A program made the position numbers and the translations under genes. The notes under the pieces were generated by a model, which saw nothing but the letters and a program-made list of their open reading frames with translations, searched no databases and was not told the origin of the DNA. Of a DNA stretch of 64,000 bases, positions 2,245-64,000 are shown one piece after another (the stretch's first letter is position 1; each line of letters starts with the position of its first letter). This stretch comes from a virus, in the IMG/VR virus record IMGVR_UViG_3300029822_000002, positions 2,107 through 66,106 of that record. One strand, given 5' to 3'.

Positions 2245-2487
2245 ATGGAAAAATCATGTTTGGATTGTTTATATTCTAATTATACAGAATCTACTTTATT
2301 ATTAAATAAGTGGGTTGATGATCAGTGCATGAAATGTGAACACCCAAATAGTCCATACTATGGTGAAATTGTTAATGATAAAAAAATATGTCGGTTATTT
2401 ATTGATGAAAAGGATTATTTTAAAAATAGAGATAGAGAAGAAAAAATAAAGGAATTAAAAACAAAATCTAAATTTAAGAAAAAATGA
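2245..2487 (+). CDS. Cys-rich hypothetical protein
   Basis: CxxC motifs; REEKIKEL tail. Confidence 0.65.
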   Translation: MEKSCLDCLYSNYTESTLLLNKWVDDQCMKCEHPNSPYYGEIVNDKKICRLFIDEKDYFKNRDREEKIKELKTKSKFKKK

Positions 2488-2876
2488 AAAACATTAATAA
2501 TTTTAATGAACAAACATCATATTGGAATGGGTTTTTTGATGTTGGTGTTATTAAAGATGAAGAAATTCTTAAACAATTATATAGATATGCATTATCATTA
2601 TCATATGATCATCATGTGGATGAATTAACTAGTATACAAAGAAAGAAAACTAACAAATTTACTGCAGAAGAATTTATTGATCAAAAATTATCATTAAATA
2701 CACATAATGTTGTTATTGATAGATTTGTTCAAGGTGGATATAATGAAAGTTGGAAATACGGTGAAATTGGGTGTAGAGTAATAAGTGCAATTGATTTTTT
2801 CCTATTTATATATGTATCATATGAAGATTTATATGATTTAGTTGAAAAATATAATTTACCAAAAATGTTAAGATAA
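2484..2876 (+). CDS. Hypothetical protein with CTS-like leader (MKNINNFNE)
   Basis: ATGA overlap with upstream gene; leader similar to other window proteins. Confidence 0.65.
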   Translation: MKNINNFNEQTSYWNGFFDVGVIKDEEILKQLYRYALSLSYDHHVDELTSIQRKKTNKFTAEEFIDQKLSLNTHNVVIDRFVQGGYNESWKYGEIGCRVISAIDFFLFIYVSYEDLYDLVEKYNLPKMLR

Positions 2877-3001
2877 ATGAAAGTTAAAGATGATATACAA
2901 ATAACAAAACTTTTATTTAATAGAATAATAATTCTTAGAATAGTAAATAAAAAAAAGAATAACTAGTTATTATTGGATTAAACTTTAAAAACAATTATAT
3001 T

Positions 3002-3259
3002 ATGAAAATAAAATTTAAATATTTAGGAAAAAACATAGAAATCACCTATAATGAAGATAATGGATATCTAGATTATGTTAAAGATTTAGATACAGATGAA
3101 TATTTAACTATTGAATCTAAATTTCAAGGTAGAGGTATTGATATTAAAAAAGAATCATTTATGATAGGTGGTGTAAGTGATGTATGTGATGCTAGATATT
3201 CTAGAATAGTAGAATTAGATATTTTCATACCTAGATTTATTTACATTAAAAATTATTAA
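3002..3259 (+). CDS. Hypothetical protein
   Basis: ORF track, co-oriented spacing. Confidence 0.6.
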   Translation: MKIKFKYLGKNIEITYNEDNGYLDYVKDLDTDEYLTIESKFQGRGIDIKKESFMIGGVSDVCDARYSRIVELDIFIPRFIYIKNY

Positions 3260-3262
3260 ATT

Positions 3263-3496
3263 ATGATAGAATTTATAGTTAAAGGTTGTAATGACTGCCC
3301 ATTTAAACAAATTAATTATAATGATTATGCAACTGGTCATGATACAATAGAATATTGTAATTTGTGTAAAATTATGGGAGATATAGAAAATATATTAGAA
3401 ATATATGATAGTTTTAAAAAAGATAAACCAACTGAAACTCCAATTTGGTGTCCATTAAAAGGAGATGGTATAATTATAAAAATTAAAAAAAATTAA
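3263..3496 (+). CDS. Cys-rich hypothetical protein
   Basis: CNDCPF, CNLC and P.WCPL motifs. Confidence 0.65.
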   Translation: MIEFIVKGCNDCPFKQINYNDYATGHDTIEYCNLCKIMGDIENILEIYDSFKKDKPTETPIWCPLKGDGIIIKIKKN

Positions 3497-3525
3497 ATAT
3501 ATTAAAAATAATATATAAATATATA

Positions 3526-4260
3526 ATGGGAAATAAATTTAGATTCATATTAGATTATTATGATTATATTGATAATATAGAAGAATTATCGGTTAATGAT
3601 GATATTAATATATTTAATAGTTTCAAAAATCAAACTAAAAATGGATCTTTAGTATTAATAGAAGGATTAATTAAAACATACCCAATAGAAAAATCTATAA
3701 ATATAATTAAAAAAAGATTCCCGTATTTAAATATATCTATTGAAGATGATGGTGAATTATATATTGATAATTTTAAAAAACAATTAAAAGAATATATACC
3801 ACTATTCAATAATTTAGGTTATTTTATTGCTCATTTAAAAATAGATAATGATACGTGGACAAAAGAAATAAATGATGATATAATACCATCTGCTTTATAT
3901 TTAGAAGCTAAGTATGATATAAAAATTGATAAAATCCCTAATAAATTATATCATGCGTCACCTCTAAAATTTAAAGATAAAATATTAAAATATGGGTTTA
4001 TTCCAAAATCTAAAAATAAAATATCAATACACCCTGATAGAATATATTTAACGGATGATATATTAACTGCTAAATTATTTGCTAAAAATTTAGGAAAAGA
4101 ATATAGTGAATATTATAAAGATGGTTATTGTATATATTCCATTGATGGTAAGTGCATAAAAGAACTATACAGTGATGTTAATTTAAGAAAAGGAGGATAC
4201 TATGTATTACATAACATACATCCAAAATGTTTTAAGATTGTATTTGAAGGTAAATTTTAA
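3526..4260 (+). CDS. ADP-ribosyltransferase-fold (Tpt1/KptA/Arr-like) protein
   Basis: LYHAS...ILKYGFIPK...PDRIYLT pattern; paralog of 5943..6632. Confidence 0.6.
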   Translation: MGNKFRFILDYYDYIDNIEELSVNDDINIFNSFKNQTKNGSLVLIEGLIKTYPIEKSINIIKKRFPYLNISIEDDGELYIDNFKKQLKEYIPLFNNLGYFIAHLKIDNDTWTKEINDDIIPSALYLEAKYDIKIDKIPNKLYHASPLKFKDKILKYGFIPKSKNKISIHPDRIYLTDDILTAKLFAKNLGKEYSEYYKDGYCIYSIDGKCIKELYSDVNLRKGGYYVLHNIHPKCFKIVFEGKF

Positions 4261-4270
4261 TATAAACTAA

Positions 4271-4735: not shown

Positions 4736-4753
4736 TATTTAAATTTATAAATT

Positions 4754-5420: not shown

Positions 5421-5424
5421 AAAT

Positions 5425-5942: not shown

Positions 5943-6632
5943 ATGTTAAAATTTAATCAATTTAAAGATGCCTTTGAAAATAAAAATGAACATTTAATCC
6001 AAGAAGGATTAATATACTCATTTTCATACTCTAAATTCAAAGAAAAATTAAATGATATTTTAACTAAATATAAAATAGATGAATATGAACTAATACAATC
6101 CGAAGATGGCATATTCTTAATAAATTTTAAACCCATTAAAGATATAAATTTATATAATGATATTATTAGTTTATTAAATATTTCTGGTTATTATATATCA
6201 TCTTATAAAAAAGACAGTAATGAAACAGAATATTTAAATTTAAACATTAATATTTTTATGAATAGTGAAAAATTAAATATTGTATTTAATAAAAATTTTG
6301 ATTTTGAAGATACAGGTATTAAATTGTTTTTATATCATGTTACAGATGAAAAACATATTAATAAAATAAAACAAATCGGATTAACATCGAAATCCAATAA
6401 AATAATAGATAATCATCCCGATAGAATATATTTATTTGAAAGTATTGATGATTTAAATTCATTTATATCTAATAAATCACAATATATTAAAGATTTTAAT
6501 CCTGTTAAATTAAAAATAAATATTAAATCTTTACCAAAACTAAAATTATATAAAGATCCAAAATATACTAATATCGACGCATATTATACTTATGATAATA
6601 TACCATCATATTCAATAAAAATAATAGATTAA
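5943..6632 (+). CDS. ADP-ribosyltransferase-fold protein with CTS-like leader
   Basis: LYHVT...IKQIGLTSKS...HPDRIYLF; leader MLKFNQFKDAFE...LIQEGLI. Confidence 0.6.
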   Translation: MLKFNQFKDAFENKNEHLIQEGLIYSFSYSKFKEKLNDILTKYKIDEYELIQSEDGIFLINFKPIKDINLYNDIISLLNISGYYISSYKKDSNETEYLNLNINIFMNSEKLNIVFNKNFDFEDTGIKLFLYHVTDEKHINKIKQIGLTSKSNKIIDNHPDRIYLFESIDDLNSFISNKSQYIKDFNPVKLKINIKSLPKLKLYKDPKYTNIDAYYTYDNIPSYSIKIID

Positions 6633-7633: not shown

Positions 7634-8008
7634 ATGATAGCAATAATTAATAAAAACTTATTTAAGGTAAAAGAAGGATACGTTATTACCAATGATGAAG
7701 AAATAAAAGAACCCAATATATTATATATTGATACATTTCAAAATAAAATTAGAACATCACTTTCTGATATTACTGAATATTCATCTTTTTATAAGTATGC
7801 TAAAAAAATTATTGCTACTATAAATTTTAAAATTGATAATATTCCATATGCAGAATTGTCTAAAGTAGATCGTAAATATACAAAAGAACAACTTAGGTTT
7901 ATATATGATACAGCAATTCATGCAACTTTAGGTGAATTAAATCATGATGATGAGTTTAATAGAGTATTATATTTTATAAATACACCAAAAAAATTGAATT
8001 TGAAATAG
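7634..8008 (+). CDS. Hypothetical protein sharing the N-terminus (INKNLFKVKEGYVIT) with 8045 and 9363 paralogs
   Basis: Direct N-terminal sequence similarity. Confidence 0.7.
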   Translation: MIAIINKNLFKVKEGYVITNDEEIKEPNILYIDTFQNKIRTSLSDITEYSSFYKYAKKIIATINFKIDNIPYAELSKVDRKYTKEQLRFIYDTAIHATLGELNHDDEFNRVLYFINTPKKLNLK

Positions 8009-8044: not shown

Positions 8045-8728
8045 ATGAAAGCAAAAATTAATAAGAATTTATTTAAAGTAAAAGAAGGATACGTTATTAC
8101 CACAGACGATAAAGTTGAAATTGGTGATTATGGTATTGGATTTGCACATGGTATTCCTGCATCAGGTAGAGGATGGTATCTATTTAAAAATGATGGAACA
8201 CCAAAAGGTAAATTGAACGCAATATGTGAAGATACCAAAAAAGTTATTTACTCTTCATTTAAACTTGAAAATATACCAATGTTTAGTATACATGGATATT
8301 CTGATCCTTGGAAAGTTGGTAATATTATTTCTGTTACAACTAATAATGAATTAATGGAAAGTGAAGATTATCCATTGAAAGGAGAATATAAAAATAGTGA
8401 ATTTCAAACATATACTGGTGAAGTAGTAGAAGTTGATAAAGGATTAGCACTTAAATTGGATAATGGTATAATTTTTAAGACACAATGAACATATTGGTTT
8501 GGTTCTATTTTAGATCAAAGTGTATCTATAGTAAAAGAATCAAATGATTATGTATTTACATTAGACGAATTGAAAAAATTATATAGAAAATTTAATCGTG
8601 AAAAATCTTTTAAAGATGAATTTATTGAGTTTACGGATTATATAAAATCAATAAAAGATATACAAGAAATAGAAATAGAACAAAATGGTGATCAATTAAT
8701 TGTTAAAAATGTTAAAAATGGAAAATAA
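8045..8728 (+). pseudogene. Paralog of 9363..10046 interrupted by in-frame TGA at 8486-8488
   Basis: Frame stays open and homologous to TAA 8726-8728; same 684-nt length; TGA aligns to GGA (Gly) in the paralog. Confidence 0.8.
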
Positions 8729-9169: not shown

Positions 9170-9379
9170 ATGGATGGTAGAAGTAGTAAATTAGCAGAAA
9201 AAATTTATTCTAAATATAAAAAACGCATTATAAATAGAATGAAAAAAGGTTCATTAGTAGGTATGAAGTTTAAAATAAATAATAAATTTTATACTATTAC
9301 TGATGGTGAATTTACATTCAATATTGATAAGTTTAAAAAAGATATATTAAAAAAGATAAAACATGAAAGCGATAATTAA
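9170..9379 (+). CDS. Hypothetical protein
   Basis: ORF track. Confidence 0.6.
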   Translation: MDGRSSKLAEKIYSKYKKRIINRMKKGSLVGMKFKINNKFYTITDGEFTFNIDKFKKDILKKIKHESDN

Positions 9380-10046
9380 TAAAAATCTATTTAGAGTAAA
9401 ACAAGGTTATGTTATCACTACAGATGATAAAATAGAAATCGGTGATTATGGTGTTGGATTTGCAGTAGGTATCAGTGGTGTAGGTAGAGGATGGTACCTA
9501 TTTAAAAATGATGGAACACCAAAAGGTAAATTGAATGCAATTTGTGAAAATACTAAAAGGGTTATTTACTCTTCATTTGAACTTGAAAATATACCTATTT
9601 TTAATATTAGTGATTACATTGATCCTTGGAAAGTTGGTAATATTATTTCTGTTACCACTAATTATGAATTAGAACAACCTAAACCTTTTCCAAATCATTC
9701 TGAATATGAAAATCTAGGTTATCGAACTTATGAAGGTGAAGTAATAGAATTAAATAATGGACTTGCTCTTAAATTAGATAATGGTATAAAATTTATGACA
9801 CAAGGAACATATTGGTTTGGTTCTATTTTAGATCAACAAATAACCGTACTAAGACATTCTGATAACTATACATTCACAACAAATGAATTAAATAAATTAT
9901 ATAGATATTTCGACTGTGATAAATCATTTAAATATGGTTTTATTGAATTTATAGATCATATAAAATCAACAAAAGATATCCAAGAAATAGAATTGGAACA
10001 AATTGATAATCAATTAATTGTTAAAAATGTTAAAAATGGAAAATAA
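9363..10046 (+). CDS. Hypothetical protein (intact copy of duplicated gene)
   Basis: High DNA similarity to 8045..8728. Confidence 0.8.
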   Translation: MKAIINKNLFRVKQGYVITTDDKIEIGDYGVGFAVGISGVGRGWYLFKNDGTPKGKLNAICENTKRVIYSSFELENIPIFNISDYIDPWKVGNIISVTTNYELEQPKPFPNHSEYENLGYRTYEGEVIELNNGLALKLDNGIKFMTQGTYWFGSILDQQITVLRHSDNYTFTTNELNKLYRYFDCDKSFKYGFIEFIDHIKSTKDIQEIELEQIDNQLIVKNVKNGK

Positions 10047-22083: not shown

Positions 22084-23814
22084 TTAAATATCCAATTTTT
22101 TAAGTCTATAATCAGCAAAAAAGTTGATAACTGGTGCTAATTCTTTACCAAATTCATCAATTAGTTTATTTCTTAATTCTTGAATTTCTTCTCTATTATC
22201 TAATTTGGAGAAAAAATTATCATAAATATGATAGTATAATGCCCAATATTTTACTTCATAATCAATAAATTCATTAATTAATGATTCTCTTATATCAAAT
22301 TTTATATATTTTTTATATCTTTTTAAATCATATTTAGAAAGACTATTTTTAACTCTTTTGTCATTTAATAACAATTCTACAATATCTTTATGTTTATAAT
22401 AATATGCCATAACTATTGCAGAATTATTTAAATCTGATGGATTAACCCCATTAAGACTTAATAATATTTTAACTATTGTATAATATCCACCTGCTGATGC
22501 ATATCTTATAGGATAGTTATCTTGATATGCAGGATTAGCACCTTCATCTAATGATTGTTTAAATAACCAAAGAATACCATATTCACATGCGTGTTGTAAT
22601 TTTTCATGTGGTGATAATTTTTCAATTGATTTTAAAATATCTTCTTTACTTTTAGGTTTTAAAAAATGTTTTATTGATTCGTTTGATTTCATTTTTCTTT
22701 CTATATCTTTAAATAAAGACTTATAACCATATTCTAATTCTATTCTAATATTTTGTTTATCAATTGGTTCTAATTTATCAACAACTCTTTTATCATTCAT
22801 CAATTGTTTAACTACACTTAAATGTTTATTTTTTAATGCATATTTTATAGCAGCATTATTATAATCTGATGGATCAACTCTTTTATCATTCATTAATACT
22901 TTAACAGCATCTAAATGACCATTTTCTGCAGCGTATGCTATTGGTAAATTATTATGAACTATTGGATTAACTCTATCATCTTTTAATAACATTTCTATAA
23001 TATCAGAATAACCATTTTGTGATGCGAATTTTATTAACATTTGATTATTTTTACCGGTATTTACACCATCTAATATAGACTGTTTAATTAAAATTGGTAT
23101 ATTGTGTCTTGTACCTTTATATAACTTTTCATCTGGTGTTAGATCTTTACATATTTCTAATATTTCATCATCGCTAAATAAGTGATTTAACTTAAATCTA
23201 AAAATTTTATCTAGTCTATCTGATGAATTTGAATTCATTATAGAATTTTTTATATCTTCTTCACTTTTAGGTTTTAAAAGATGTTTTATTGATTCATTTG
23301 TATTAAATTTATTTTGTAAATAATTATAAATTTCTGTATACCAATTTTCACTAGCGATAGTTAAAAGATGTTTAATAGATTCATCTGTTCTATTTAATTC
23401 ATAATTAACTCTGTCAGTATAAATACCTAATTGATAAGGAGTTAATGATTTTATCACTCTTTCATCTTTAAGTAATAAATCTAACATTTTCCAATTTTTA
23501 TTAGCGTATACTATTGATGCCATCGATAAATAAGTTGGATCGCACTGTTTAAATTGTAAAAGAAATCTAACTATATCGATATGATTATTATAAACAGCAC
23601 TAAAAAGTGCATTTGAATATGCAAAATCATCTAGTTCATAATTAAACTTATCATCATTTATTACATCTTTAACTATTGATAAAATGCCATATTCTGAAGC
23701 CTTTAAAAGTTTACTTCTATTATCTAATTTTTCTATTGATTTTGAAATATCTTCTTTATTTTTAGGTTTTAGAAGATGTTTTATAGATTCACTATATGGT
23801 TTTAAATATTTCAT
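22084..23814 (-). CDS. Ankyrin-repeat protein with repeated ESIKH[LF]LKPK leader modules
   Basis: Ankyrin repeats (D.RVDPS..NN.AI..A...GH...VK.LL); leader at N-terminus and three times internally. Confidence 0.85.
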   Translation of the reverse strand: MKYLKPYSESIKHLLKPKNKEDISKSIEKLDNRSKLLKASEYGILSIVKDVINDDKFNYELDDFAYSNALFSAVYNNHIDIVRFLLQFKQCDPTYLSMASIVYANKNWKMLDLLLKDERVIKSLTPYQLGIYTDRVNYELNRTDESIKHLLTIASENWYTEIYNYLQNKFNTNESIKHLLKPKSEEDIKNSIMNSNSSDRLDKIFRFKLNHLFSDDEILEICKDLTPDEKLYKGTRHNIPILIKQSILDGVNTGKNNQMLIKFASQNGYSDIIEMLLKDDRVNPIVHNNLPIAYAAENGHLDAVKVLMNDKRVDPSDYNNAAIKYALKNKHLSVVKQLMNDKRVVDKLEPIDKQNIRIELEYGYKSLFKDIERKMKSNESIKHFLKPKSKEDILKSIEKLSPHEKLQHACEYGILWLFKQSLDEGANPAYQDNYPIRYASAGGYYTIVKILLSLNGVNPSDLNNSAIVMAYYYKHKDIVELLLNDKRVKNSLSKYDLKRYKKYIKFDIRESLINEFIDYEVKYWALYYHIYDNFFSKLDNREEIQELRNKLIDEFGKELAPVINFFADYRLKKLDI

Positions 23815-24962
23815 TAAAGTGTAATTCTTTTTGTTCTCATATGAATTGGTTTTAATTCATGACTTTTTCTATATGGTTCAGTATATTTGACATCTTTAAA
23901 TTTAGATGTATTTGATATCATTATAGATAATTTCCTTTCAATCCTATCAAACATTAAATTGTATTTATCGTCACCTAATTCATTTTTAATATCATTTAAA
24001 GGTTTAAATAAATTATCTACATTTAACTTTTGTTGGTTTATTAATGTCATTAAAACGTTTATAAATGGTATTAATAAAGACGTATTCAATAACATATCAT
24101 AAATATTATTTATTACTATATCATATTTTGATGCAACAACCTTAAATATATTTTTTATAGTAGTAAACTTATTAACTAAATTATCTATATCTTTCTGATT
24201 TATATTATATTGTGATAATAATTCGAATAATTTACTAACTTTTTCTTTATTTTCCCTTGTTAATATTGATATTGATGTTATTGTCATTAACATTACTTCC
24301 TTATCAGAAAAATTAGTTAATAATTTAGATAGTTCATATAGATTTGCGACCGACAATTTATATTTTGATGCATAATATAATTTACCTACTTTATTATCTA
24401 TTCTACTATATTCCCAATTATACTTAGATATATTTAGACTTTCGTTTATATTTTCATCATCTTTTTTCGATATATAAAATGATAATTCATCATCCATTTT
24501 TAATCTATTTATAACTCTATCATCATTTAAAAGTATTTTAACAATTTTATTATGTTTATTTTGATCTGCTTTTTTTAATGCTCTATTATGTTTATCAGAT
24601 GGATCAACTCTATCATCTTTTAATAATAGTTTTACCAAATCTTCATACCCATACATTGCAGCAGATATAATAGGGCTATTTCTATCTGTAGAAGGATCAA
24701 CTGAATCAAAAGTTAATAAATATTTAACAATATCTATATTACCATGTTCACATGCTATTTCTAATGGTTCATTTCTACTAATTGATGGATCAACTCCGTC
24801 TTTTTCTATTGCTTCTTTAACAACAGACAATATACCATATGTACACCCTTTATATAATTTATCTTTAGGTGTTAATTTATTTATAGTTTTTAATATATCT
24901 TCTTCATCTTTTGGTTTTAAAAAATGTCTTATCGATTCGTTGTATGTTTTAATATGTTTCAT
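23814..24962 (-). CDS. Ankyrin-repeat protein with CTS-like leader plus unrelated C-terminal domain
   Basis: MKHIKTYNESIRHFLKPK; ankyrins; internal NINESL. Confidence 0.85.
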   Translation of the reverse strand: MKHIKTYNESIRHFLKPKDEEDILKTINKLTPKDKLYKGCTYGILSVVKEAIEKDGVDPSISRNEPLEIACEHGNIDIVKYLLTFDSVDPSTDRNSPIISAAMYGYEDLVKLLLKDDRVDPSDKHNRALKKADQNKHNKIVKILLNDDRVINRLKMDDELSFYISKKDDENINESLNISKYNWEYSRIDNKVGKLYYASKYKLSVANLYELSKLLTNFSDKEVMLMTITSISILTRENKEKVSKLFELLSQYNINQKDIDNLVNKFTTIKNIFKVVASKYDIVINNIYDMLLNTSLLIPFINVLMTLINQQKLNVDNLFKPLNDIKNELGDDKYNLMFDRIERKLSIMISNTSKFKDVKYTEPYRKSHELKPIHMRTKRITL

Positions 24963-24965: not shown

Positions 24966-25331
24966 TTATAAATAAGGTTTTAAGTAATCTTCCATTTCAT
25001 TTATATACTTAAATGTATCATAATCTTCTATTTCTTTAAGATTTTCATCTAATATAATAATTGTATCTATATCATTACCCTGAATAAGAATATGGTATTG
25101 TTTATCTTCAACTTGGAAATCAAACCACTTTCCCATTTCACTTATTTCAGGAGATTTAGATTCAAACTCTTCTAATTCTTTTTCAGTAAATAAATCATAT
25201 AAATCATGTTTTTCTATATAAACATATTTTTTATAGTATGGTAAACTATAAACTATGTTTTTCATTTCATCCTTACTTTTACCTTTTAAAAGATGTATTA
25301 TCGATTCGTTATATGTTTTAATATGTTTCAT
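24966..25331 (-). CDS. Hypothetical protein with CTS-like leader
   Basis: MKHIKTYNESIIHLLKGK, near-identical to the neighbour at DNA level. Confidence 0.8.
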   Translation of the reverse strand: MKHIKTYNESIIHLLKGKSKDEMKNIVYSLPYYKKYVYIEKHDLYDLFTEKELEEFESKSPEISEMGKWFDFQVEDKQYHILIQGNDIDTIIILDENLKEIEDYDTFKYINEMEDYLKPYL

Positions 25332-26086: not shown

Positions 26087-27877
26087 ATGAAAAGAGATTG
26101 TATTACAATTTATGGATCACAAAGATTAATTGAATTACTTAGTAAAATTAATCATCGTATATCTAATACCATAATAGAACAATTTAGATATTATAATAGT
26201 TATCCTATATCATATCTTGATATTGGAGAATCTAATGATACTATTAGTTTTATTTATTCTAATAAGGTAAAAGAATTACAAAGGGAATACGATTACAAAT
26301 ATTCGCAAAAAGCATGGAAAGAAAAAAGATCTGAAATGAAAGTTGGTAAAGTCATTAAACTTTTATTTGGTGATTCATTTCCTGTAAATAATCCAAAAGG
26401 TAGTCCTATACCTTGCCCTCCAATAGATATTGAAACATTCGTAAATATGTTCAAAGCCGAAAGGGAAAAGAACGAAAATTACGATAGATTTGAAATTGTA
26501 TCAGGTAAAGATATTGCATTTTGGTATAATTTTAAAAATTATACTAGATTTACACATGGTGATACTCCACTTGGAAAATCTTGTTTAAGATATGATGAAT
26601 CTACTAAATTTCTAGATTTATATGTAAAAAATCCAGATAAAATAAGTATGCTTATTCTTAAAGACGACCAAAATAAATTAAGAGCTAGATCAATATTATG
26701 GAAATTAGATAACCCAGAAAGTAGAATTTATATGGATAGAATTTATTCAGTAAATGATTTTGATGTTGAAATATTTAAAGATTATGCTAGGAAAAATGGG
26801 TGGTTACATAAAGAGAGACAAACCTATGGTTGGAATAATGTAATTGTTGATACTAGAAATGATTCTTTATATACCCCTAGTAATTTTATTATGGATGTAT
26901 ATTTAAATAATAAAAAATTTAGATATTATCCATATTTGGATACATTATCTGTATATAATACAGAGACAGGTAGATTATGTAATGACGGTAGATTATTAAA
27001 AACATCACCACATATTCATTTAATTGATCCACAAGGTAGTTATATAGATGAAGTAGATCATAGACCTAGAGTTTATAGTAGATATTATGATGATGATATA
27101 CTTAGAGATGAATCAGTATATTGTCAAATAGATGATGACTGGGTATATGAATCAGATTCAGTATATGTTCATAATACTGATGGATTACGGGCTATAAAAG
27201 GATCAAATAAGATTGTTAAATCTGAAATCCTTGGTAAACGAAAATACTTTTTATCTGATAGGTGTGTCTATTCAGATTATTTAAATACTTATATTTTTGA
27301 AGATAGTGTAAGAGAAGCTTTCATTGATGATAAAAAAACTCAACGAGTAATTATTCATTTTAAAATGATCGGAAGAGGATTTAAACTAGATGATAATGGT
27401 GATATTATAGTTGATAATTCTCCACCAAAAAAAGTTGTTAAAAAAAAAGATAAAATCGAAGACTATCTTAAATTTCATCATTCTTATTATGATAGTGATC
27501 ATATCATCAGTATTAACCAATCTAGTTCTGAAAATAGGCGAATACACCCAACAGAAAGATATTCAACAGAAGAAGAAGGAGATGGATCGCACATGGATTT
27601 ACCAAGAAGAATTAGAAGATCAAGTGACACCAGATTTCCATCTTCTAGAAGATTAATGGGAGATCAAGAAGAACAAATATTACAAGGAAGACCATTATCC
27701 GAAAATATGGAAAATATAGAAATAAATGATAGAAGTGAAAGAGAACAAAACGTAGATGAAAATACATGGCAAACATTATTAGGAAATTATATGGTATGTA
27801 ATACTAATCGATGGATAAATTCAGATATGTATATTTATGGTACTGATATAAGTGAAAATGAAAATGAAAGTGAATAA
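26087..27877 (+). CDS. Uncharacterised 'SC.RY / R.L.W / MDRIY / YPYLDT' family protein, paralog 1
   Basis: Motifs shared with 54166..55626 and 55660..56850; TATCTTTG promoter at 26040-26047. Confidence 0.8.
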   Translation: MKRDCITIYGSQRLIELLSKINHRISNTIIEQFRYYNSYPISYLDIGESNDTISFIYSNKVKELQREYDYKYSQKAWKEKRSEMKVGKVIKLLFGDSFPVNNPKGSPIPCPPIDIETFVNMFKAEREKNENYDRFEIVSGKDIAFWYNFKNYTRFTHGDTPLGKSCLRYDESTKFLDLYVKNPDKISMLILKDDQNKLRARSILWKLDNPESRIYMDRIYSVNDFDVEIFKDYARKNGWLHKERQTYGWNNVIVDTRNDSLYTPSNFIMDVYLNNKKFRYYPYLDTLSVYNTETGRLCNDGRLLKTSPHIHLIDPQGSYIDEVDHRPRVYSRYYDDDILRDESVYCQIDDDWVYESDSVYVHNTDGLRAIKGSNKIVKSEILGKRKYFLSDRCVYSDYLNTYIFEDSVREAFIDDKKTQRVIIHFKMIGRGFKLDDNGDIIVDNSPPKKVVKKKDKIEDYLKFHHSYYDSDHIISINQSSSENRRIHPTERYSTEEEGDGSHMDLPRRIRRSSDTRFPSSRRLMGDQEEQILQGRPLSENMENIEINDRSEREQNVDENTWQTLLGNYMVCNTNRWINSDMYIYGTDISENENESE

Positions 27878-51320: not shown

Positions 51321-51343
51321 AATAAAAATAAAATTGAAAAATT

Positions 51344-51604
51344 ATGATTGAAAAAGTTAAAAATTTTGACTATTTGAATGCATCAGATGCACAAGTCGAA
51401 GAACTATTAAATGAAATGGTAGAATTACCAAAAGACGAACTAAAAGAAGTTGTTAATAACATAGTAGATACTATTGATTATAAATTTACTTCAGATGATA
51501 CAGAAGAAAAATTACCAAATTCATATGAAGTTATTTTTAATAATCCTATTATTAAAGATATTCTTGAAGAATTATTAAAAGATTATGAACAAACTGTTGA
51601 TTAA
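51344..51604 (+). CDS. Acidic hypothetical protein
   Basis: ORF between VWA and AAA genes. Confidence 0.65.
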   Translation: MIEKVKNFDYLNASDAQVEELLNEMVELPKDELKEVVNNIVDTIDYKFTSDDTEEKLPNSYEVIFNNPIIKDILEELLKDYEQTVD

Positions 51605-51652
51605 TTAAAAAATTATTTATATATTTGTAATCAAATTTAAAATTTAAATATT

Positions 51653-52885: not shown

Positions 52886-54169
52886 ATGAGTAAAAAAAGA
52901 ACAATTGATCAATTAAAAAAATGTTGTAATAAAGTTCATAATAATTATTATGACTACTCTTTAATTGATTATATTAATAATAACACAAAAATTAAAATTA
53001 TATGTCCAATTCACGGCGTTTTTGAACAATTACCATCACATCATATTAGAGGATCAAAATGCCCAAAATGTAGTATCTTAAAAAGAATTATTACAAATGA
53101 AGATTTTATAAAAAAATCAATATTAATTCATAATAATTATTATGATTATTCTTTAGTTAATTATAAAAATTCACATATTAAAGTAAAAATAATTTGTCCT
53201 GTACATGGTATGTTTGAACAAAGACCATATGCTCATTTAAAAGGTAATGGTTGTCCATCATGTCATATCGATAAATTAAGATATAATAATGATAAATTTA
53301 TAAATAAATCATTAATTATTCATAATAATTATTATGATTATTCTATGGTTAATTATATAAATAATAAAACTAAGGTTAAAATAATTTGTCCTATTCATGG
53401 TGTTTTTGAACAAAGACCATATGCTCATTTAAATGGTCAAAAATGTCCAAAATGTCAAGATACAAAGAAATCTGAAAAAGAATTTAAAAGATTATCAAAT
53501 ATTAAACATAATAATTATTATAACTATTCTTTAGTTAATTACATTAATAATAAAACTAAAGTTAAAATAATTTGTCCAAAACACGGTGTTTTTGAACAAA
53601 GACCAGATGACCATTTAAAAGGGCACGGTTGCATTAAATGTAGTGGTAAATTAAAAAATAATTTAAATGATATTATAAAAAAATCAAATGATGTTCATAA
53701 TAATTTTTATTCTTATAATAAATCAATTTATATTAATAATTCAACAAAAATGATAGTAACTTGTCCAATACACGGTGATTTTAACGTAACACCAAATAAT
53801 CATATAAGCAAAAAAAGTGGTTGTCCGAAATGTAAAGAATCTATAGGAGAAAGAAAAATAAGAATATTTTTAGAAGATAATAATATAAAATATATCAATC
53901 AAAAAAGATTCAAAGATTGTAAATATAAACTACCATTACCTTTCGATTTTTATTTAACAGATTATAATATTTGTATTGAATATGATGGTATTCAACATTT
54001 TAAATCTTTAAAAGTTTTTGGTGGTGATAAAAGATTAAATGAACAAAAAACAAAAGATAAAATAAAAAATGAATATTGCTCAAATAACAATATTGAATTA
54101 ATTAGAATAACATACAAGGATGATATTAATTTCCAATTAAATAAAATTAAAAAAGGACTAAAATATTAG
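52886..54169 (+). CDS. Endonuclease: five CP.HG zinc repeats plus Vsr/PD-(D/E)XK-like domain, paralog of 48276
   Basis: SIGE..I, FDFYLTDYNICIEYDGIQH. Confidence 0.85.
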   Translation: MSKKRTIDQLKKCCNKVHNNYYDYSLIDYINNNTKIKIICPIHGVFEQLPSHHIRGSKCPKCSILKRIITNEDFIKKSILIHNNYYDYSLVNYKNSHIKVKIICPVHGMFEQRPYAHLKGNGCPSCHIDKLRYNNDKFINKSLIIHNNYYDYSMVNYINNKTKVKIICPIHGVFEQRPYAHLNGQKCPKCQDTKKSEKEFKRLSNIKHNNYYNYSLVNYINNKTKVKIICPKHGVFEQRPDDHLKGHGCIKCSGKLKNNLNDIIKKSNDVHNNFYSYNKSIYINNSTKMIVTCPIHGDFNVTPNNHISKKSGCPKCKESIGERKIRIFLEDNNIKYINQKRFKDCKYKLPLPFDFYLTDYNICIEYDGIQHFKSLKVFGGDKRLNEQKTKDKIKNEYCSNNNIELIRITYKDDINFQLNKIKKGLKY

Positions 54170-55626
54170 TCCTTTAATTTCCAATTATTATTACTGTCTT
54201 TTGTCACTAGTCCTATATCATAGTATTCTTCTCCCACTTTAGCAAATGTTTCATTTTCATTTACTTTATGATCTAAAATACTACTTGTTTTATTTTTATC
54301 TAAATATACTTTTCTTGCACTTGTTTTAAATATCCAAGTATTATGATAATCTGACCATATACATTTTTCTTCTGGGAAATATTTATCTATCTTATTACTT
54401 ATTACAGAATGTACAATACCTTGATAACCAGGTATTGCATATACTTCACTACCTAAACCAGTATTATAAACTCTTAATGCTTCATATCTTAATACCCAAT
54501 CTTCTCCTAATTCACAATATACTGCATCTCTTCTCATTATATCATCGCCATGATAATCACTATAAACAGTATCATAATCATCATCTAGATAATCATAATC
54601 ACCACCTGTACTAGTTAATAAATATTTACATCCTGTCTCTCTATTACTTAACAATCCAGTATCAGGATTATGATAAACCAATGTATCTAAATATGGATAT
54701 TTATTGTGATGTTCTGGTTTTAAATATACTTTTAGTATAATATTTGAATTTATTTCAGTTCTAGGATCAGCAATTTCTCCACTTTGTTGATAGCCTTGTA
54801 TTGATCTAAATAACCAATCTTTTGATTTAGCGTATTCTATAAATATTTTTTCATCTGAATAGTCATTTGTATATATTCTATCCATATAAAATCTATCATT
54901 AGGTTCATCTAATTTCCATACTAATGATCTACCTTTTATTTTTGTTTTTGTTTCATCTGAGTAGTATATTAATAATTGTACTTTATCATCATTATTAGTA
55001 TAAAGTGTAAAATATGATTCACCGTGTCTTGACATACAAGAACCACCTAATGATCCATTATTTCTGTCTAAATAATTATCACAATAATACCATTTTGCAA
55101 TATCTGTTCCACTTACTAAATCAAACATTTTAAATTTTTCTTCCTTATTAGACATTACTTTATACATATTAACAAATGACTCAACATCATTAATTTTATA
55201 TTGTTTATATCTTGATGATGATTGAAACTCACCTGGAAATAAGGTATTTATAAATCTTCCTATTTTCATAGAACCTCTATATCTTTTGTATAAAGGATTA
55301 TCTATTTTTATTTCATCTCTTAATTTCTTTTTAAATTCTATATTAGAATCAAGTTCTTCTTCATCATCAATTTCCAATAAATCACCAGCTTTATTAGCCA
55401 ATATAAATGATATTGAATCATCTGTACCATCTTTAATATCTATAAATGTATGTTTAGTCTTAAAATCTAAATCATTATGTGATTTTAATAGTTTATCTGA
55501 TATATCACTGTATATTGATTTTAATATATCAATTAATCTATCAGATAAAACAAATTTCATTTCTCTTATTGATTCTACTAACATTTTTTCTACTATATAA
55601 TCATTATAACTGGTTATTAATTTCAT
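54166..55626 (-). CDS. 'MDRIY/YPYLDT' family protein, paralog 2, CTS-like leader
   Basis: MKLITSYNDYIVE; LGGSCM, GRSLVW, YMDRIY, YPYLDT. Confidence 0.8.
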   Translation of the reverse strand: MKLITSYNDYIVEKMLVESIREMKFVLSDRLIDILKSIYSDISDKLLKSHNDLDFKTKHTFIDIKDGTDDSISFILANKAGDLLEIDDEEELDSNIEFKKKLRDEIKIDNPLYKRYRGSMKIGRFINTLFPGEFQSSSRYKQYKINDVESFVNMYKVMSNKEEKFKMFDLVSGTDIAKWYYCDNYLDRNNGSLGGSCMSRHGESYFTLYTNNDDKVQLLIYYSDETKTKIKGRSLVWKLDEPNDRFYMDRIYTNDYSDEKIFIEYAKSKDWLFRSIQGYQQSGEIADPRTEINSNIILKVYLKPEHHNKYPYLDTLVYHNPDTGLLSNRETGCKYLLTSTGGDYDYLDDDYDTVYSDYHGDDIMRRDAVYCELGEDWVLRYEALRVYNTGLGSEVYAIPGYQGIVHSVISNKIDKYFPEEKCIWSDYHNTWIFKTSARKVYLDKNKTSSILDHKVNENETFAKVGEEYYDIGLVTKDSNNNWKLKD

Positions 55627-55659: not shown

Positions 55660-56850
55660 TTAAACACTACCATATCCACCACCATCACTTGTTAACCTAA
55701 TAAATCTATCATCATCGTTATTTTTATCTCTATTTTCAATGTTATATTTTTGAGCATAATCATTATCATTAGTTATTTCACCTGTTACTTGATTATAAAA
55801 TGACATTGTATCTAAATATGGATATCTACCATATTTTTGTGGTTGTAATTTAACCAACATATCTATTTTAGATACTGTATCATTTTCAGGATCATAAATT
55901 TTAACATCATATCCCATTGATTGTGAACTCTTATATAACCAACCTTTTCTTTTTGCATATTCAATAAACATATATTCATCAGAATCATTTGCAGTATAAA
56001 TTCTATCCATAAAATATCTACCTTCTGGTTCATCTAGTTTCCAAACTAATGCTCTACCGATAATTTTATCTCTTATATCTTCTGGAAATAGTATTAACAT
56101 TTGAACTTTATTATCATTATTACAATATAGATCAAAATATTTAGATTTTTCTGAATATTTCATACATGATCCACCTAAAGTTCCTGTACTTTTAAAATAA
56201 TTTTGACAATCATACCAATGTCTAATATCCTCCCCTTTAACTATTATAAATTTTTTAGAGTTTTCTTCTACTGTTGCAATGAACATATTTACAAATGATT
56301 CAACATCATCTGGTTTTTCTTTCTTAACAGCATCTGTTCTTTTAACATTTGCTGGAAATTTATTACCAAATATTCTATTAATAAATCTACCTATTTTAAT
56401 TTCAGATCTAAATTTTGTCCAAACTGGATGTTCTTTTGATTTAAATTGAGGATCAAATAAATCTATCATTTGTTCATCATCAGTAATCCAAGGATTCTTA
56501 TAACTAGGTATATAATCATAATAACCCCCTTTAAATTCTTTATCAGTTGTATTTACATCTCTTATATAATGACCGTGTACTAAATCTGGTTCTATTAACT
56601 CAGGAACCTTGTTTGCCTGTATAAAAGAAACCATATCTGATTCTGAACCTAAATCAACAAATGTTATTTTAAATTTTGGTTCACTATCTATATGTAATTC
56701 TAATAGTTCATCTGCGATTTTATGATTCATCTGTTTTAACATTTTAATCATTTTTGGAGATAGTATTAACTCCAATTCTTTAATTTTAAGATTCATATTC
56801 TCTAAAATTTTATCGGTTAAGTAATCTTGAAAACTTTGTAATTTTTTCAT
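55660..56850 (-). CDS. 'MDRIY/YPYLDT' family protein, paralog 3, CTS-like leader
   Basis: MKKLQSFQDYL; LGGSCM, GRALVW, FMDRIY, YPYLDT. Confidence 0.8.
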   Translation of the reverse strand: MKKLQSFQDYLTDKILENMNLKIKELELILSPKMIKMLKQMNHKIADELLELHIDSEPKFKITFVDLGSESDMVSFIQANKVPELIEPDLVHGHYIRDVNTTDKEFKGGYYDYIPSYKNPWITDDEQMIDLFDPQFKSKEHPVWTKFRSEIKIGRFINRIFGNKFPANVKRTDAVKKEKPDDVESFVNMFIATVEENSKKFIIVKGEDIRHWYDCQNYFKSTGTLGGSCMKYSEKSKYFDLYCNNDNKVQMLILFPEDIRDKIIGRALVWKLDEPEGRYFMDRIYTANDSDEYMFIEYAKRKGWLYKSSQSMGYDVKIYDPENDTVSKIDMLVKLQPQKYGRYPYLDTMSFYNQVTGEITNDNDYAQKYNIENRDKNNDDDRFIRLTSDGGGYGSV

Positions 56851-60386: not shown

Positions 60387-60986
60387 TTATATATTAATAA
60401 TTTCTATCTTATCCACAGTTTTATGACTAATGTACCCTAAATCTATCGCACATAAATGATTATTTTTAATAGTGAAATTTCCTGGATTACGTAAATCTAC
60501 TCTTATACCATATTTATCTGCTTCTTTTAGTATTTTTAAAAAATCTCTTACATATGAATTTGGGTGTATTGTATTAAAATATGACATTTTATAATTAAAT
60601 TTTTTAAATGCATCATTTAATTTATTTAAATTAACTTTTTTTGTATCTAAATATTCCATTTCAATTATATAAAAAGTATGATCGTTATGATTAATTATAT
60701 ATGAATTATAACAATCTACTAAATATTCTAATTTTTTTCCCTTTAATATATATGCTGCGGCTGCATTAAATTTATCTGATGTATATTTAAGAACTGTATT
60801 CTTATCTGTTAAATAACAATATCCGTAATGCCCACCAGAAATATTTTTTATAATATTATAACCTAATTTTTTAAAAATATCAATAAAATATTGATGGTCT
60901 TTATTAGGAGGTAAACTCTCTTCATTTAAAAGATGATATTTTTCTACTTCTTCGTTAAATTGTTTCCATTTTTTAATATTGTTCAT
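60387..60986 (-). CDS. Protein-kinase-like fold protein with CTS-like leader
   Basis: ISGGHYG (Gly loop), VLK, IEMEYL, DLRNPGN, AIDLG. Confidence 0.7.
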   Translation of the reverse strand: MNNIKKWKQFNEEVEKYHLLNEESLPPNKDHQYFIDIFKKLGYNIIKNISGGHYGYCYLTDKNTVLKYTSDKFNAAAAYILKGKKLEYLVDCYNSYIINHNDHTFYIIEMEYLDTKKVNLNKLNDAFKKFNYKMSYFNTIHPNSYVRDFLKILKEADKYGIRVDLRNPGNFTIKNNHLCAIDLGYISHKTVDKIEIINI

Positions 60987-61002
60987 GTTTTATTTTTATT
61001 TT

Positions 61003-61629
61003 TTATTTTGTTATAATAACTAACATTGTATCATTATTAATAATTTCAAATTTCAAATTTAAATGTGGGAATAAATCATAAAACATTTGTTCGTTGTATA
61101 CTCTATATTCAGATTCCCAATAATAATCATCTATTTTAACATTTTTTCCATATAAAAAAGTTAATAAAACTTTTTTATTACATAAATCATGTAATTTATT
61201 TATAGTTTCAATAAATTCATCTTTATCTATATACCATGTAAAAACTCCAATTGCACAAACAATATCAAATTTTTTATTAATTTCATTAGCATCTTTTATT
61301 AATTTAAAATCATAATTTTTATATGTATCTTTAGCAATTGATATATAATTTTTATTTATATCTACACCTAAATAATCAGATAATTGAATATTTTGATTAT
61401 CTAAATGTAATATAAAATCACCCATTCCACATCCGAAATCTAATAATGAATCACCTGATTTAATATGATTAGAAACTAATTCAAAATTTTTAATTTGAGA
61501 ATTATCAGCTTCCCATGCAACAGATGAACTTCTATATCCTTTATATATTGATAAAAATTTATTATATACTTCTATATTTTTTATTAATGTTTGTTCTTTA
61601 AATTCTTCAAATAATAATATTCTATTCAT
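61003..61629 (-). CDS. Class I SAM-dependent methyltransferase with CTS-like leader
   Basis: LLDFGCGMG, YLGVDIN, FDIVCAIGVF. Confidence 0.88.
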   Translation of the reverse strand: MNRILLFEEFKEQTLIKNIEVYNKFLSIYKGYRSSSVAWEADNSQIKNFELVSNHIKSGDSLLDFGCGMGDFILHLDNQNIQLSDYLGVDINKNYISIAKDTYKNYDFKLIKDANEINKKFDIVCAIGVFTWYIDKDEFIETINKLHDLCNKKVLLTFLYGKNVKIDDYYWESEYRVYNEQMFYDLFPHLNLKFEIINNDTMLVIITK

Positions 61630-61651
61630 TTTTATTATTCTTTATTATTTT

Positions 61652-61926
61652 TTATTTTTTTTTATTTCTTAGTTGAATTAATCTAATCTTCAAACTCCTT
61701 ACTGCTCCTTCTTCTGTTTCCCCTTCTCCATAAGTGTTGTCAAATTCACCACCTATTAGATTTGCGGTATAGATTCCTCTAAATACATCATAACTTAAAT
61801 TATATTTTATATTATGTTCTTTACCGCCACTTACCCAAGTATAACTTTTCACATTATCTTATTTAATGAAAAGTCATTATTTTCTTTCAAATTGAATTCT
61901 TTAAATGTGTTTATATACTTTCTCAT
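61652..61926 (-). pseudogene. CTS-leader gene split by frameshift (leader 61849-61926; cargo 61652-61852)
   Basis: MRKYINTFKEFNLKENNDFSLNKIM* overlaps GTG start; ATGTGAAA looks like a TG duplication of ATGAAA. Confidence 0.55.
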
Positions 61927-62225
61927 TTCTTTTGTCTTTATTTTTCATTATATATTAAAAAAATAAATGTATATTTTTATATACTGAAAACCAATAATAT
62001 CAATATAATTTGGATTTTTTTCATATTTTATATTAAATATATAATATTGTAATCGTTTTTATATTACCCAAAAAATAATGTAAATCAATATGGTTATAGT
62101 GGAAAAAAGAACAAAGTGGAAAACCTCCTGACTCACGACCAGGAATTTTAGATTTATGATTGTATTTTGGGTTAAAACTGGTTAATTGTGAAAGGAGGTA
62201 TTCTAAAAATCTAATTAGAAACATG

Positions 62226-62252
62226 GGAGCGGAAATTCGACCGCTCCTTTTT
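62226..62252 (+). terminator. GC-rich intrinsic terminator with no protein gene directly upstream on +
   Basis: GGAGCGG-AAATTCGA-CCGCTCC-TTTTT. Confidence 0.75.
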
Positions 62253-62325
62253 CTTGATATAAACTTTTTTGTTTTCTATACTATAATAAATTGAGATAAC
62301 TTCAAACTAAAAAAAGATAAATTCT

Positions 62326-63141
62326 ATGAAAACAAAAAATCCTATCAATATAGATAACATCGTATATCTATTAAATCAACAAAAATTTACTAATGAACAA
62401 TTTACTTTAAATTCTTTAAATAGATTTTCTATTAAAGATTTCAATAATGTATTTTTAACATTTATCAATTATTTTTTTGAATCATATGAAATAAAAGATA
62501 TTATAATATCAGATGTTCGTTCATACGGTACAACATTAATTAATGATAAATTAAGAAATTATTGGCATACAAATATATGTAAAATCTCATTTAATGCATT
62601 ATACCCTAATATCATAGTTAAATTATATGAAAAAGGTAAATTAAAATTTAATATTGATGAATTTGCTATTATTTATTCGTTTATGGTTAAAAATATAAAA
62701 GAAATCAAAAATCATAAAGATATAAAAGATGTTAGTAAATTATTATTTAAATATTTAATAAATTATACTTATGGTGCATTATCAAATCCTAAATTTTCTA
62801 ATTTTTATGTAGATAAACATCGACTAATATGCGAATACATTCATAACCCATTAGTTACATTTAAAAACGATTATATTGATAATATTATTTATGTAGATAC
62901 TGATGTAATATATTTAGATTTTCTAACAAAAGAAATAAAAAAACAATTTGATTGGTTAGAACTACCTTATGAAATAGAATATGGTATAAATGGTTTCTTT
63001 TTACAAAAAAAGAAATTTATTATTGATAAAAATAATAGTTGTAAAATTAGAGGTATAAGGGAATATAAAAGTAAATATAAATTACAAAAAAGTAGATTAT
63101 ATAAAATATCAAAATTATTTCAAATTATTTCAAATACTTAA
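62326..63141 (+). CDS. Minimal family-B DNA polymerase palm/fingers-like protein, probably inactive
   Basis: SFNALYPNII (motif A, Asp replaced by Ser), KYLINYTYG (motif B), YVDTD (motif C); no exonuclease domain. Confidence 0.7.
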   Translation: MKTKNPINIDNIVYLLNQQKFTNEQFTLNSLNRFSIKDFNNVFLTFINYFFESYEIKDIIISDVRSYGTTLINDKLRNYWHTNICKISFNALYPNIIVKLYEKGKLKFNIDEFAIIYSFMVKNIKEIKNHKDIKDVSKLLFKYLINYTYGALSNPKFSNFYVDKHRLICEYIHNPLVTFKNDYIDNIIYVDTDVIYLDFLTKEIKKQFDWLELPYEIEYGINGFFLQKKKFIIDKNNSCKIRGIREYKSKYKLQKSRLYKISKLFQIISNT

Positions 63142-63478
63142 ATCCTCTAAACCCCTTCATATATATTGGTTCAATCTTATTAAACTTTGGACTTCTTAAT
63201 ATAAATTTACCTTTCCATTTTTTACCTGTCGTTTGGCAGGTAAATTCTTTTTCTTCAAAACCAACTATTTCTAACCAACCTACCATATAATTATCATGAA
63301 CTAAATAACACTTATTTCCCTTTTTGGTATGTTTAGGAAATGAATTAACTTTAAAATTTAATACATAATTATTTTGTTGTGCATCAATTAATTCCTTTTC
63401 ATAATCTTCCCATTTAATAGTTGTTGGTATAGTAACAACAATATCATAATTTTCTATAAATTTTTCGTATGTTAACAT
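63125..63478 (-). CDS. ASCH/PUA-like small beta protein with CTS-like leader (MLTYEKFIE)
   Basis: GNKCYLVH...VG...I...E pattern; P..MKGFRGFKY tail. Confidence 0.5.
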   Translation of the reverse strand: MLTYEKFIENYDIVVTIPTTIKWEDYEKELIDAQQNNYVLNFKVNSFPKHTKKGNKCYLVHDNYMVGWLEIVGFEEKEFTCQTTGKKWKGKFILRSPKFNKIEPIYMKGFRGFKYLK

Positions 63479-63527
63479 TAAAAATAATTTGTTTTATTTT
63501 ATATATAATAAAAAACAAAATTAGATT

Positions 63528-63902
63528 ATGAAAATTAAAAGATTTAATCAATTTGTAAATGAATCTATAATTAATTTGAATTATGAAATATTAATAGATA
63601 ATGAACCATATGATTTATCACAATTTAAACAATATAAATATGGAGTATATATTAAATCATATGACGATTTATATTATATAGGTGATTTAAGAACTTTTGA
63701 TAAAATAAAATATTTAAGTTATTTAAATATAGAAAAAATCAAAAAAGTTAAATATAAATCAAATTTAATACAACCTGATGAAAATCAATTAAAAATAATA
63801 GAAGAAGAATTGGATAAAAATTATTTATCTCCTGATTTAATGGATGATACATTATCATATAAAGAATATATTAAAAAAATAATAAATGAAAATGAAAATT
63901 AA
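63528..63902 (+). CDS. Hypothetical protein with CTS-like leader
   Basis: MKIKRFNQFVNES. Confidence 0.7.
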   Translation: MKIKRFNQFVNESIINLNYEILIDNEPYDLSQFKQYKYGVYIKSYDDLYYIGDLRTFDKIKYLSYLNIEKIKKVKYKSNLIQPDENQLKIIEEELDKNYLSPDLMDDTLSYKEYIKKIINENEN

Positions 63903-64000
63903 AAGATTTAATCAATTAAATGAAAAAAAGGATAACGATATAAATTTAGAAACTTTAAAAGATAAAAATGGTAATATAATCATAAATGTTTCAATATCTA
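63892..64000 (+). CDS. 5' part of a protein with CTS-like leader (truncated by window edge)
   Basis: MKIKRFNQLNEKK... Confidence 0.6.
   Translation, partial: MKIKRFNQLNEKKDNDINLETLKDKNGNIIINVSIS

Follow-up and report, generated by a model that had tools for sequence, protein, structure and literature searches.

The T-even phages carry diverse internal proteins that share only a capsid targeting sequence (CTS) (PMC3012670); at least ten CTS internal proteins have been reported, and three of them are now known to act as blockers of GmrSD restriction enzymes (PMC12373910). In T4, the CTS-bearing proteins are retained in the head and injected (PMC3012670, PMC12373910), and mutants of the internal protein (IP) IPIII showed that residues 4 and 7 mainly determine targeting, and that processing depends on residues 8 and 10 (PMC9026906). 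The prohead protease gp21 removes the CTS from IPI, IPII and IPIII of T4. In phiKZ-like phages, a gp21-related protease (phiKZ gp175, SPN3US gp245) trims many head-internal proteins after Glu (PMC5694885, PMC7411985, PMC10052503). In this work we analyzed a stretch of 64,000 nucleotides (the window), bases 2107-66106 of the 94,286-bp virus contig IMGVR_UViG_3300029822_000002 of IMG/VR, in which otherwise unrelated proteins start at their extreme N-terminus with a tag of the form hydrophobic-x-x-[FYW]-x-x-[FY]-([ILV]-x-E). The original prediction, made from the window alone, had described this tag as a T4-like leader that loads varied proteins into the head, and had proposed it as an undescribed system. 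The T4 starts which it quoted agree with the T4 record, where IPII and IPIII begin MKTYQEFIAE and IPI begins MKTFKEF.

The contig is a fragment of an uncultivated huge phage. It shows 22% GC and zero tRNA genes, and according to CheckV it is about 13% complete, which gives a full genome of about 700 kb. Its 1124-aa tail sheath was used as query and recovered 83 related viral contigs; the complete genomes among these relatives include G002 (639,979 bp, with terminal repeats) and one of 675,678 bp. The best matches of the G002 head protease are found in the 634-735 kb "uncultured phage" genomes LR745206 and LR756501-4, followed by Lak phages, and this places the relatives in the Mahaphage clade; Bacteroidetes are the predicted hosts of the largest phages of this clade (PMC7162821). 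The closest complete relatives of the contig are thus Mahaphage-type genomes of 640-735 kb.

A position-specific scoring matrix (PSSM) that was trained only on a different genome, G002, and that lets the tag begin at any of the first residues, was used to score the gene starts. In the window, 10 of the 102 starts scored above the 99th percentile of internal sequence, while composition-preserving shuffles (n=500) gave 1.04 on average and at most 5. For the whole contig, 15 of 140 starts exceeded this percentile versus 1.4 expected. Two extra open reading frames (ORFs) of the window, 24966-25331 and 61849-61926, also showed high scores (10.8 and 12.4). The highest-ranking tag, that of 63528, scored 15.8, a value reached by none of 2191 null segments. 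On their own score, the weak members are 2484 (p ~0.04), whose start shows a single aromatic residue, and 22084 (p ~0.03), which is a paralogue of 23814. A strict regular expression written from the window, M..[ILVMFY]..[FYW][NQEDKS][DEQNK][FYWSL], matched eight of the 140 N-termini of the contig versus 0.3 expected from internal positions; as it was written after viewing the data, it was repeated on the independent DNA of G002, where it matched 27 of 965 N-termini versus 1.6 expected. The comparison of a leader PSSM with shuffled sequence, which had been proposed together with the original prediction, thus shows an enrichment at the N-terminus, and chance as the source of the shared starts is excluded.

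The 13 N-termini quoted in that prediction are all present in the sequence. Their starts are real, but the minus-strand genes had been listed by their low coordinate, the true starts being 23814, 24962, 25331, 55626, 56850, 60986, 61629 and 63478. Furthermore, the ORF given at 63892 probably starts at 63886, and the N-terminus listed at 61926 exists but belongs to an ORF of merely 25 codons. Past the stop of this ORF, the reading runs on in another frame (61652-61852, 66 codons), and the region 61652-61926 of the minus strand is a frameshifted or decaying tagged gene (pseudogene) or an assembly error. Paralogy was assessed by all-against-all BLASTP of the tagged genes of the window, with 20 residues trimmed. 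The three ankyrin genes form one family and 54166 and 55660 another, so that about 8-9 independent families are left of the 12 tagged ORFs. Apart from these two paralogue groups, the tagged bodies are unrelated, with different Pfam families or none. A Sec, Tat or lipoprotein signal peptide was also considered and rejected: such peptides have a hydrophobic core of about 7-15 residues behind a basic N-region, while in the tags single hydrophobic residues alternate with K/N/E/D and a hydrophobic run is absent.

The comparison with T4 was based on an a-priori pattern, [FYW]..[FYW][ILVM].E, derived from the functional positions of T4 and counted within the first ten residues. It was found in 40 N-termini of G002 versus 3.3 expected (P 1e-29), in four of this contig versus 0.75 expected (P 0.007), and, for the 636 de-duplicated families of 154 other related loci, in 28 versus 2.75 (P 4e-19). 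The T4-like leader is thus real, specific to the N-terminus and in agreement with the functional positions of T4, as originally predicted. As in T4, it occupies the extreme N-terminus of otherwise unrelated proteins, is 10-17 residues long and has an aromatic pair three residues apart, followed in part of the tags by [ILV]-x-E (Y-Q-E-F-I-A-E in T4, Y-N-D-Y-I-V-E and F-N-Q-F-V-N-E in the window), and the relatives of the contig encode both a gp21-type protease and a gp20-type portal.

Two forms of the tag were distinguished in G002. The short form is nearly identical to the T4 tag (MKSYKAFINEN, MKTFSQFINEN, MLKYNEFINEN), and the tags MLTYEKFIEN, MKIKRFNQFVNES and MKLITSYNDYIVE of the window group with it; the first of these (63125) is the short form closest to MKTYQEFIAE. 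The long form, M-K-[YH]-[LI]-K-[LT]-F-[EN]-x-[FY], was obtained by iterating the PSSM on G002 and is found in 31-42 of 965 starts (<1 expected) versus 2-21 of 163,245 internal positions, and several of these "internal" matches are located behind a second Met or 2-7 residues past the called start. With both forms together, 78 of the 965 G002 proteins are tagged, with a median length of 172 aa, and their genes are dispersed over the whole 640-kb genome. A logo of 73 G002 tags shows F/Y at position 0 in all of them and F/Y/W at position +3 in 66, and I (22), L (15) or V two positions before the Glu; since its alignment is anchored on the aromatic pair, the independent test is the a-priori pattern. 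The full [ILV]-x-E core is present in genes 54166 and 63528 of the window, in two more genes of the contig and in 40 of the 78 G002 tags.

The tag can be separated from the body that follows it. Gene 26087-27877 aligns with 54166 and 55660 only from about residue 25 and lacks the tag, so it serves as an internal control for a detachable element. The family of 54166, found only in phages, has 100 database homologues, 61 of them tagged (score above the 99th percentile) and about 17 starting directly at the conserved body. In the case of the methyltransferase 61003-61629, all 31 phage orthologues (46-89% identity) begin M..I.LFEEF, and two bacterial homologues have no tag. In addition, the G002 orthologue of contig gene 69944 shows a different N-terminus without tag. 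The untagged paralogue, orthologue and bacterial homologues bear out the modular leader that had been proposed. An AlphaFold (AF2) model of the methyltransferase has a mean predicted local distance difference test (pLDDT) value of 92.5, with residues 1-7 below 50 and the first helix starting at residue 12; its tag is therefore predicted to be disordered ahead of a folded body.

Codon usage in 34 tagged genes of G002 bears on whether peptide or DNA is maintained. The codons of the tags vary synonymously (TTT/TTC, CAT/CAC, TTA/CTA/TTG, ATT/ATA/ATC and GAA/GAG), third codon positions are the least informative, replacements of residues are conservative (F/Y, I/L/V, E/D/N), and upstream of the genes only a short A/T box is conserved. 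The tag is conserved as protein and not as DNA. An explanation without any peptide function would take the shared start for a recombining gene-start cassette (promoter, leader and first codons), or for a translation-initiation optimum of an AT-rich genome, and could point to a WATATATA box located 20-25 nt upstream of the ATG in 57% of the tagged versus 18% of the other G002 genes. Both versions of it are contradicted by the codon pattern, in which synonymous variation stands alongside conserved or conservatively changed residues. Furthermore, conservation of the upstream DNA does not extend past the short box, the tag is retained across methyltransferase orthologues of 46-89% identity, and its register from the Met shifts while the core motif is kept. 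We consider this explanation very improbable. In the window, a promoter-like WATATATA box is also found upstream of 61926.

The head genes of G002 show the order portal, protease and major head protein, and the portal matches T4 gp20 with an E value of 8e-30. The protease is part of an 804-aa protease-scaffold protein (L118:4524-6938) with relatives in loci L126-L203. It matches the PHROG head maturation protease (E 2e-25), and according to hhalign it aligns with T4 gp21 (E 2e-5, 135 columns) with the motifs NRN.R.Y, GE.(D/N)HP and VSSR (H and S) in register; tblastn with this protein also matched T4-like "prohead core protein serine protease" genes. A gp21-like protease, whose presence elsewhere in the genome had been raised as a check of the original prediction, is encoded by the complete relatives, but none is found on the contig of the window, which is about 13% complete. 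In a search of protease loci (338 loci), none of the 80 listed came from the same sample as the window.

All 52 distinct proteases of the clade show an N-terminal L-I-[VI]-E and an invariant [LI]-N-E-S-L-G directly behind the protease domain, and T4 gp21 has LIE at the corresponding N-terminal place (PMC9026906). Many tags end in the same [ILV]-N-E-[SN] as this protease boundary. Behind the boundary, the 52 proteases carry 9-15 matches to the T4-derived pattern, whose probability in a random 14-residue unit is about 0.003, as estimated from the contig composition. The repeats are regularly arranged, with 494 of about 595 spacings of exactly 14 residues, and have the consensus K-N-I-x-Y-S-E-Y-[IL]-A-E-N-[LV]-D; YSEYIAE and YSEYLAE are the most frequent units, versus YQEFIAE in T4. 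Beyond the repeats, the extension continues with an acidic or Q-rich spacer and a conserved C-terminal domain.

Two phages were compared with the clade. In Lak-A1, 40 kb around the protease (L205) were read with TAG as Q; the protease keeps R-I-N-E-S-L-G but is devoid of YSEY[IL]AE repeats. Near this protease, five small ORFs share the N-terminus MIKFK.K and three larger ORFs share M..NIK.L[LM]ES/Y; ..LLESLFD is also among the leaders of nearby genes. The absence of repeats together with other leaders fits a co-variation of repeat and tag, in a single comparison. In PTm1, a cultured T4-like Bacteroidota phage, the repeats of the protease-scaffold are different, and tags of this kind were not found near the head genes. 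A BLASTP comparison of T4 gp23 with the major head protein of G002 gave no match, and homology of the capsid propeptide is not claimed.

On these data, we consider it fairly likely that the shared N-terminus is a T4-type capsid-targeting propeptide, a reading that is well supported but circumstantial, and the tagged proteins would then probably be delivered with the DNA. In the mechanism that we propose, the hydrophobic and aromatic stripe of the tag (positions -3, 0 and +3) would dock each protein on the scaffolding core during head assembly, and this core would be, in the clade, the long C-terminal extension of the gp21-type protease with its 9-15 tandem 14-residue Ar-x-x-Ar-[IL]-x-E repeats. 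The protease would cleave after the Glu of [ILV]-x-E, by which the scaffold would be dismantled and the cargo freed inside the head, and at the next infection the cargo would exit with the DNA and act before any phage gene expression. Docking, cleavage, packaging and ejection are all steps that we infer from sequence. The likeness between tag and repeat suggests that the tag is one copy of the scaffold repeat and docks by the same contacts. More tentatively, the tag may work by mimicry, in which the cargo would co-assemble with the scaffold through one repeat-like unit, be released by the cut that dismantles the scaffold, and stay in the head. If this were true, the CTS of T4 (YQEFIAE) would be a relic of such a scaffold repeat, and the proteins which the largest known phages inject (about 5-8% of their genes) could be read directly from sequence. 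To our knowledge the receptor of the T4 targeting signal has not been identified, and the matching protease-scaffold repeats suggest a concrete and testable docking mechanism for a T4-type signal.

Several results weigh against a T4-type propeptide or against its docking on the repeats. The Pfam S77 score of the protease is 13-20 bits, under the curated cut-off of 27 bits, and the contig of the window (about 13% of a genome) shows neither an S77 match nor head genes. The long-form PSSM, when run on T4 proteins, fails to rank the IPs of T4 first; the long form thus has no demonstrable homology to the T4 tag, and the link to T4 is based on the four functional positions and not on overall similarity. 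Many long-form tags also lack a clean [ILV]-x-E cut site. The full 13-column tag PSSM places the repeats in the top 0.01-10% of internal positions, typically about 0.5%, so that their likeness to the tag is only moderate and is carried by four key positions. A complex prediction, in which protease residues 1-166 were paired with the N-terminal 60 residues of one tagged protein of G002, gave a score of 0.00 and a partner pLDDT of 35; this outcome is neutral and weighs on neither side. About 8% of all genes are tagged, including proteins of 400-576 aa, far above anything shown for T4. Finally, the WATATATA box is also located upstream of the genes for the capsid, the protease, the sheath and DNA polymerase; found before DNA polymerase and structural genes alike, it is uninformative on timing and gives no evidence of late expression.

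The secure cargo of the window comprises two ankyrin-repeat proteins and one class I methyltransferase. These two labels of the original prediction hold, its kinase-like protein (60387) is a lead only, and its ADP-ribosyltransferase (ART)-like (2484) and ASCH-like labels were unconfirmed. According to Pfam, the 78 tagged G002 proteins include three ART-PolyVal domains and one each of Acb3, an inhibitor of the cyclic oligonucleotide-based antiphage signaling system (CBASS), SprT-like and ASCH; these domain types would fit host-directed effectors borne by the virion. The T4 ADP-ribosyltransferase Alt, which is packed in the head and cut by gp21, is a precedent (PMC9026906). The ART-PolyVal and SprT-like domains of the tagged G002 proteins resemble those of polyvalent proteins and Alt; however, here the domains are mostly found on separate small proteins, each with its own tag, and not on one giant fusion.

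This cargo also bears on whether delivery follows. The tag could send proteins to the prohead or to the protease without any delivery, either as a removable propeptide that keeps enzymes inactive until head maturation or on assembly helpers that are degraded and expelled. Such a role is based on the same sequence evidence as a T4-type propeptide, and T4 scaffold proteins are likewise cut at L/I-x-E and leave the head (PMC9026906). However, the cargo resembles host-directed effectors, with ART-PolyVal and Acb3 in G002 and ankyrin and methyltransferase proteins in the window, and the CTS-bearing proteins of T4 stay in the head and are injected (PMC3012670, PMC12373910). We regard a tag without delivery as quite unlikely.

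Another explanation is that the tag is a handle for a different shared partner, such as the radical S-adenosylmethionine (radical-SAM)/SPASM protein encoded at 10977-12149, the phage Clp and chaperone set or a localisation factor. The window does encode a radical-SAM/SPASM protein, a ClpB/ClpC-like ATPase and a DnaJ-like protein, and one radical-SAM gene of G002 (357-358 kb) adjoins four tagged genes. However, the 78 tagged genes of G002 are dispersed over 640 kb and only three radical-SAM genes are present, the radical-SAM enzyme of the window has no G002 homologue by tblastn, and the tagged gene closest to it is 4.3 kb and about ten genes away (the nearest tagged genes are 5943 and 23814). 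A leader read by a radical-SAM enzyme does not fit tagged genes that are dispersed and unlinked to such an enzyme. All these partners would leave the coincidence with the T4 positions, the motif of the protease boundary and the scaffold repeats unexplained, and we consider a handle of this kind unlikely.

Compared with the T4 CTS, the tag described here differs in scale, since three proteins carry it in T4 and at least ten in T-even phages (PMC12373910) versus 12 ORFs in 64 kb of the window and 78 of 965 proteins in G002. It also has a second and longer form, MK[YH][LI]K.F[EN].[FY], with three extra residues and often without a clear cut site. The tagged cargo of these megaphages includes predicted enzymes of 200-576 aa, and the protease of the clade is fused to a repeat scaffold. 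With the CTS already known on diverse internal proteins of T-even phages (PMC3012670, PMC12373910), an "undescribed system" was an overstatement. Our literature searches gave no report of tags of this kind in huge phages. T-even phages already show the principle; the much larger scale, the longer second form and the protease-scaffold repeats that carry the tag core appear to be new.

The phiKZ-like phages also deliver a large protein mass with the DNA (PMC5694885, PMC7411985, PMC10052503). In the clade studied here, mainly I/L/V is found at position -2 (P3) and the protease boundary is [LI]-N-E-S. This differs from the phiKZ-type cleavage sites, S/A/G-x-E, and we know of no short common N-terminal tag described for phiKZ-like propeptides. 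Encapsulin cargo-loading peptides are likewise short terminal peptides, which are sufficient to load unrelated cargo into an HK97-fold shell; however, they are usually C-terminal, bind the shell protein itself, are uncleaved and have no delivery function. If the tag works as in T4, it would label the proteins that are carried in the virions of the largest known phages and delivered before genes are expressed, and a mechanism known for three to about ten proteins of T-even phages would be extended to dozens in each genome. The first-strike effectors of phages that are not open to cultivation could then be listed from sequence, with the methyltransferase, ankyrin, kinase-like, ADP-ribosyltransferase and CBASS inhibitor proteins as examples. 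The tag could also be used to load foreign proteins into such capsids, as done with T4.

Table 1. Tagged genes of the window and one untagged paralogue, in order of position; genes are named in the text by their low coordinate.
Feature	Coordinates	Strand	N-terminal tag and remarks
130-aa protein	2484..2876	+	MKNINNFNE; weak candidate, p 0.04
229-aa protein	5943..6632	+	MLKFNQFKDAFE; p 0.002
Ankyrin-repeat protein, 576 aa	22084..23814	-	MKYLKPYSES
Ankyrin-repeat protein, 382 aa	23814..24962	-	MKHIKTYNESI
121-aa ORF, short paralogue of the ankyrin genes	24966..25331	-	MKHIKTYNESI
Untagged paralogue of 54166 and 55660	26087..27877	+	First ~22 residues absent
486-aa protein	54166..55626	-	MKLITSYNDYIVE; full core Y-x-x-Y-I-x-E
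396-aa protein, paralogue of 54166	55660..56850	-	MKKLQSFQDYLTD; p 0.0009
199-aa protein	60387..60986	-	MNNIKKWKQFNEE; p 0.003; kinase-like as a lead only
Class I SAM methyltransferase, 208 aa	61003..61629	-	MNRILLFEEFKE
25-codon ORF	61849..61926	-	MRKYINTFKEF; score 12.4
117-aa protein	63125..63478	-	MLTYEKFIEN; p 0.002
124-aa protein	63528..63902	+	MKIKRFNQFVNES; strongest tag, full T4-type core F-x-x-F-V-x-E
109-aa protein, cut by the window end	63886..64000	+	MKMKIKRFNQLNE; p 0.005

Some tagged genes of the window (Table 1) show additional features. The protein of 5943 belongs to a family with multiple paralogues, whose G002 members carry varied forms of the tag. For 2484 and the family of 54166, function searches gave no reliable assignment. 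The 576-aa ankyrin protein is made of three modules, each of which opens with (N/D)-E-S-I-K-H-[LF]-L-(K-P-K); the stretch (N/D)-E-S-I-K-H-[LF]-L that follows its tag recurs at residues 145, 174 and 379, at the starts of modules. In the ankyrin protein 23814..24962, an additional I-N-E-S is found between the ankyrin part and the C-terminal part. The repeated (N/D)-E-S-I-K-H stretches of the 576-aa protein could be internal protease sites or a mere duplicated module. A general polyprotein organization was considered and rejected: the motifs [LIVM]-N-E-[SNTGA], NES and [LI]-x-E are not enriched inside the tagged G002 proteins, and the NES-IKH repeats are a trait of the ankyrin family and not of tagged proteins at large.

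The window also contains auxiliary genes, which encode a phosphoribosyl pyrophosphate (PRPP) synthetase (1276-2223), the radical-SAM/SPASM enzyme (10977-12149), the ClpB/ClpC-like double AAA ATPase (34575-37034), and a DUF2201 metallopeptidase-VWA protein followed by an AAA protein (49698-52837), in addition to the DnaJ-like protein. Three paralogous nuclease-like proteins are encoded at 48276-49160 (minus strand) and 52886-54169 (plus strand) of the window and at 81364-84288 of the contig; they have internally repeated N-terminal modules in common, with 47-60% identity, and one of them is part of a 974-aa protein that adjoins the tail sheath gene. In G002, homing-endonuclease genes are located beside the major head protein gene. 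Finally, three neighbouring genes of the window, 7634-8008, 8045-8488 and 9363-10046, share the start M-[KI]-A-[KI]-I-N-K-N-L-F-[KR]-V-K-[EQ]-G-Y-V-I-T; these genes are a true paralogue family (72% identity), distinct from the capsid-type tag.

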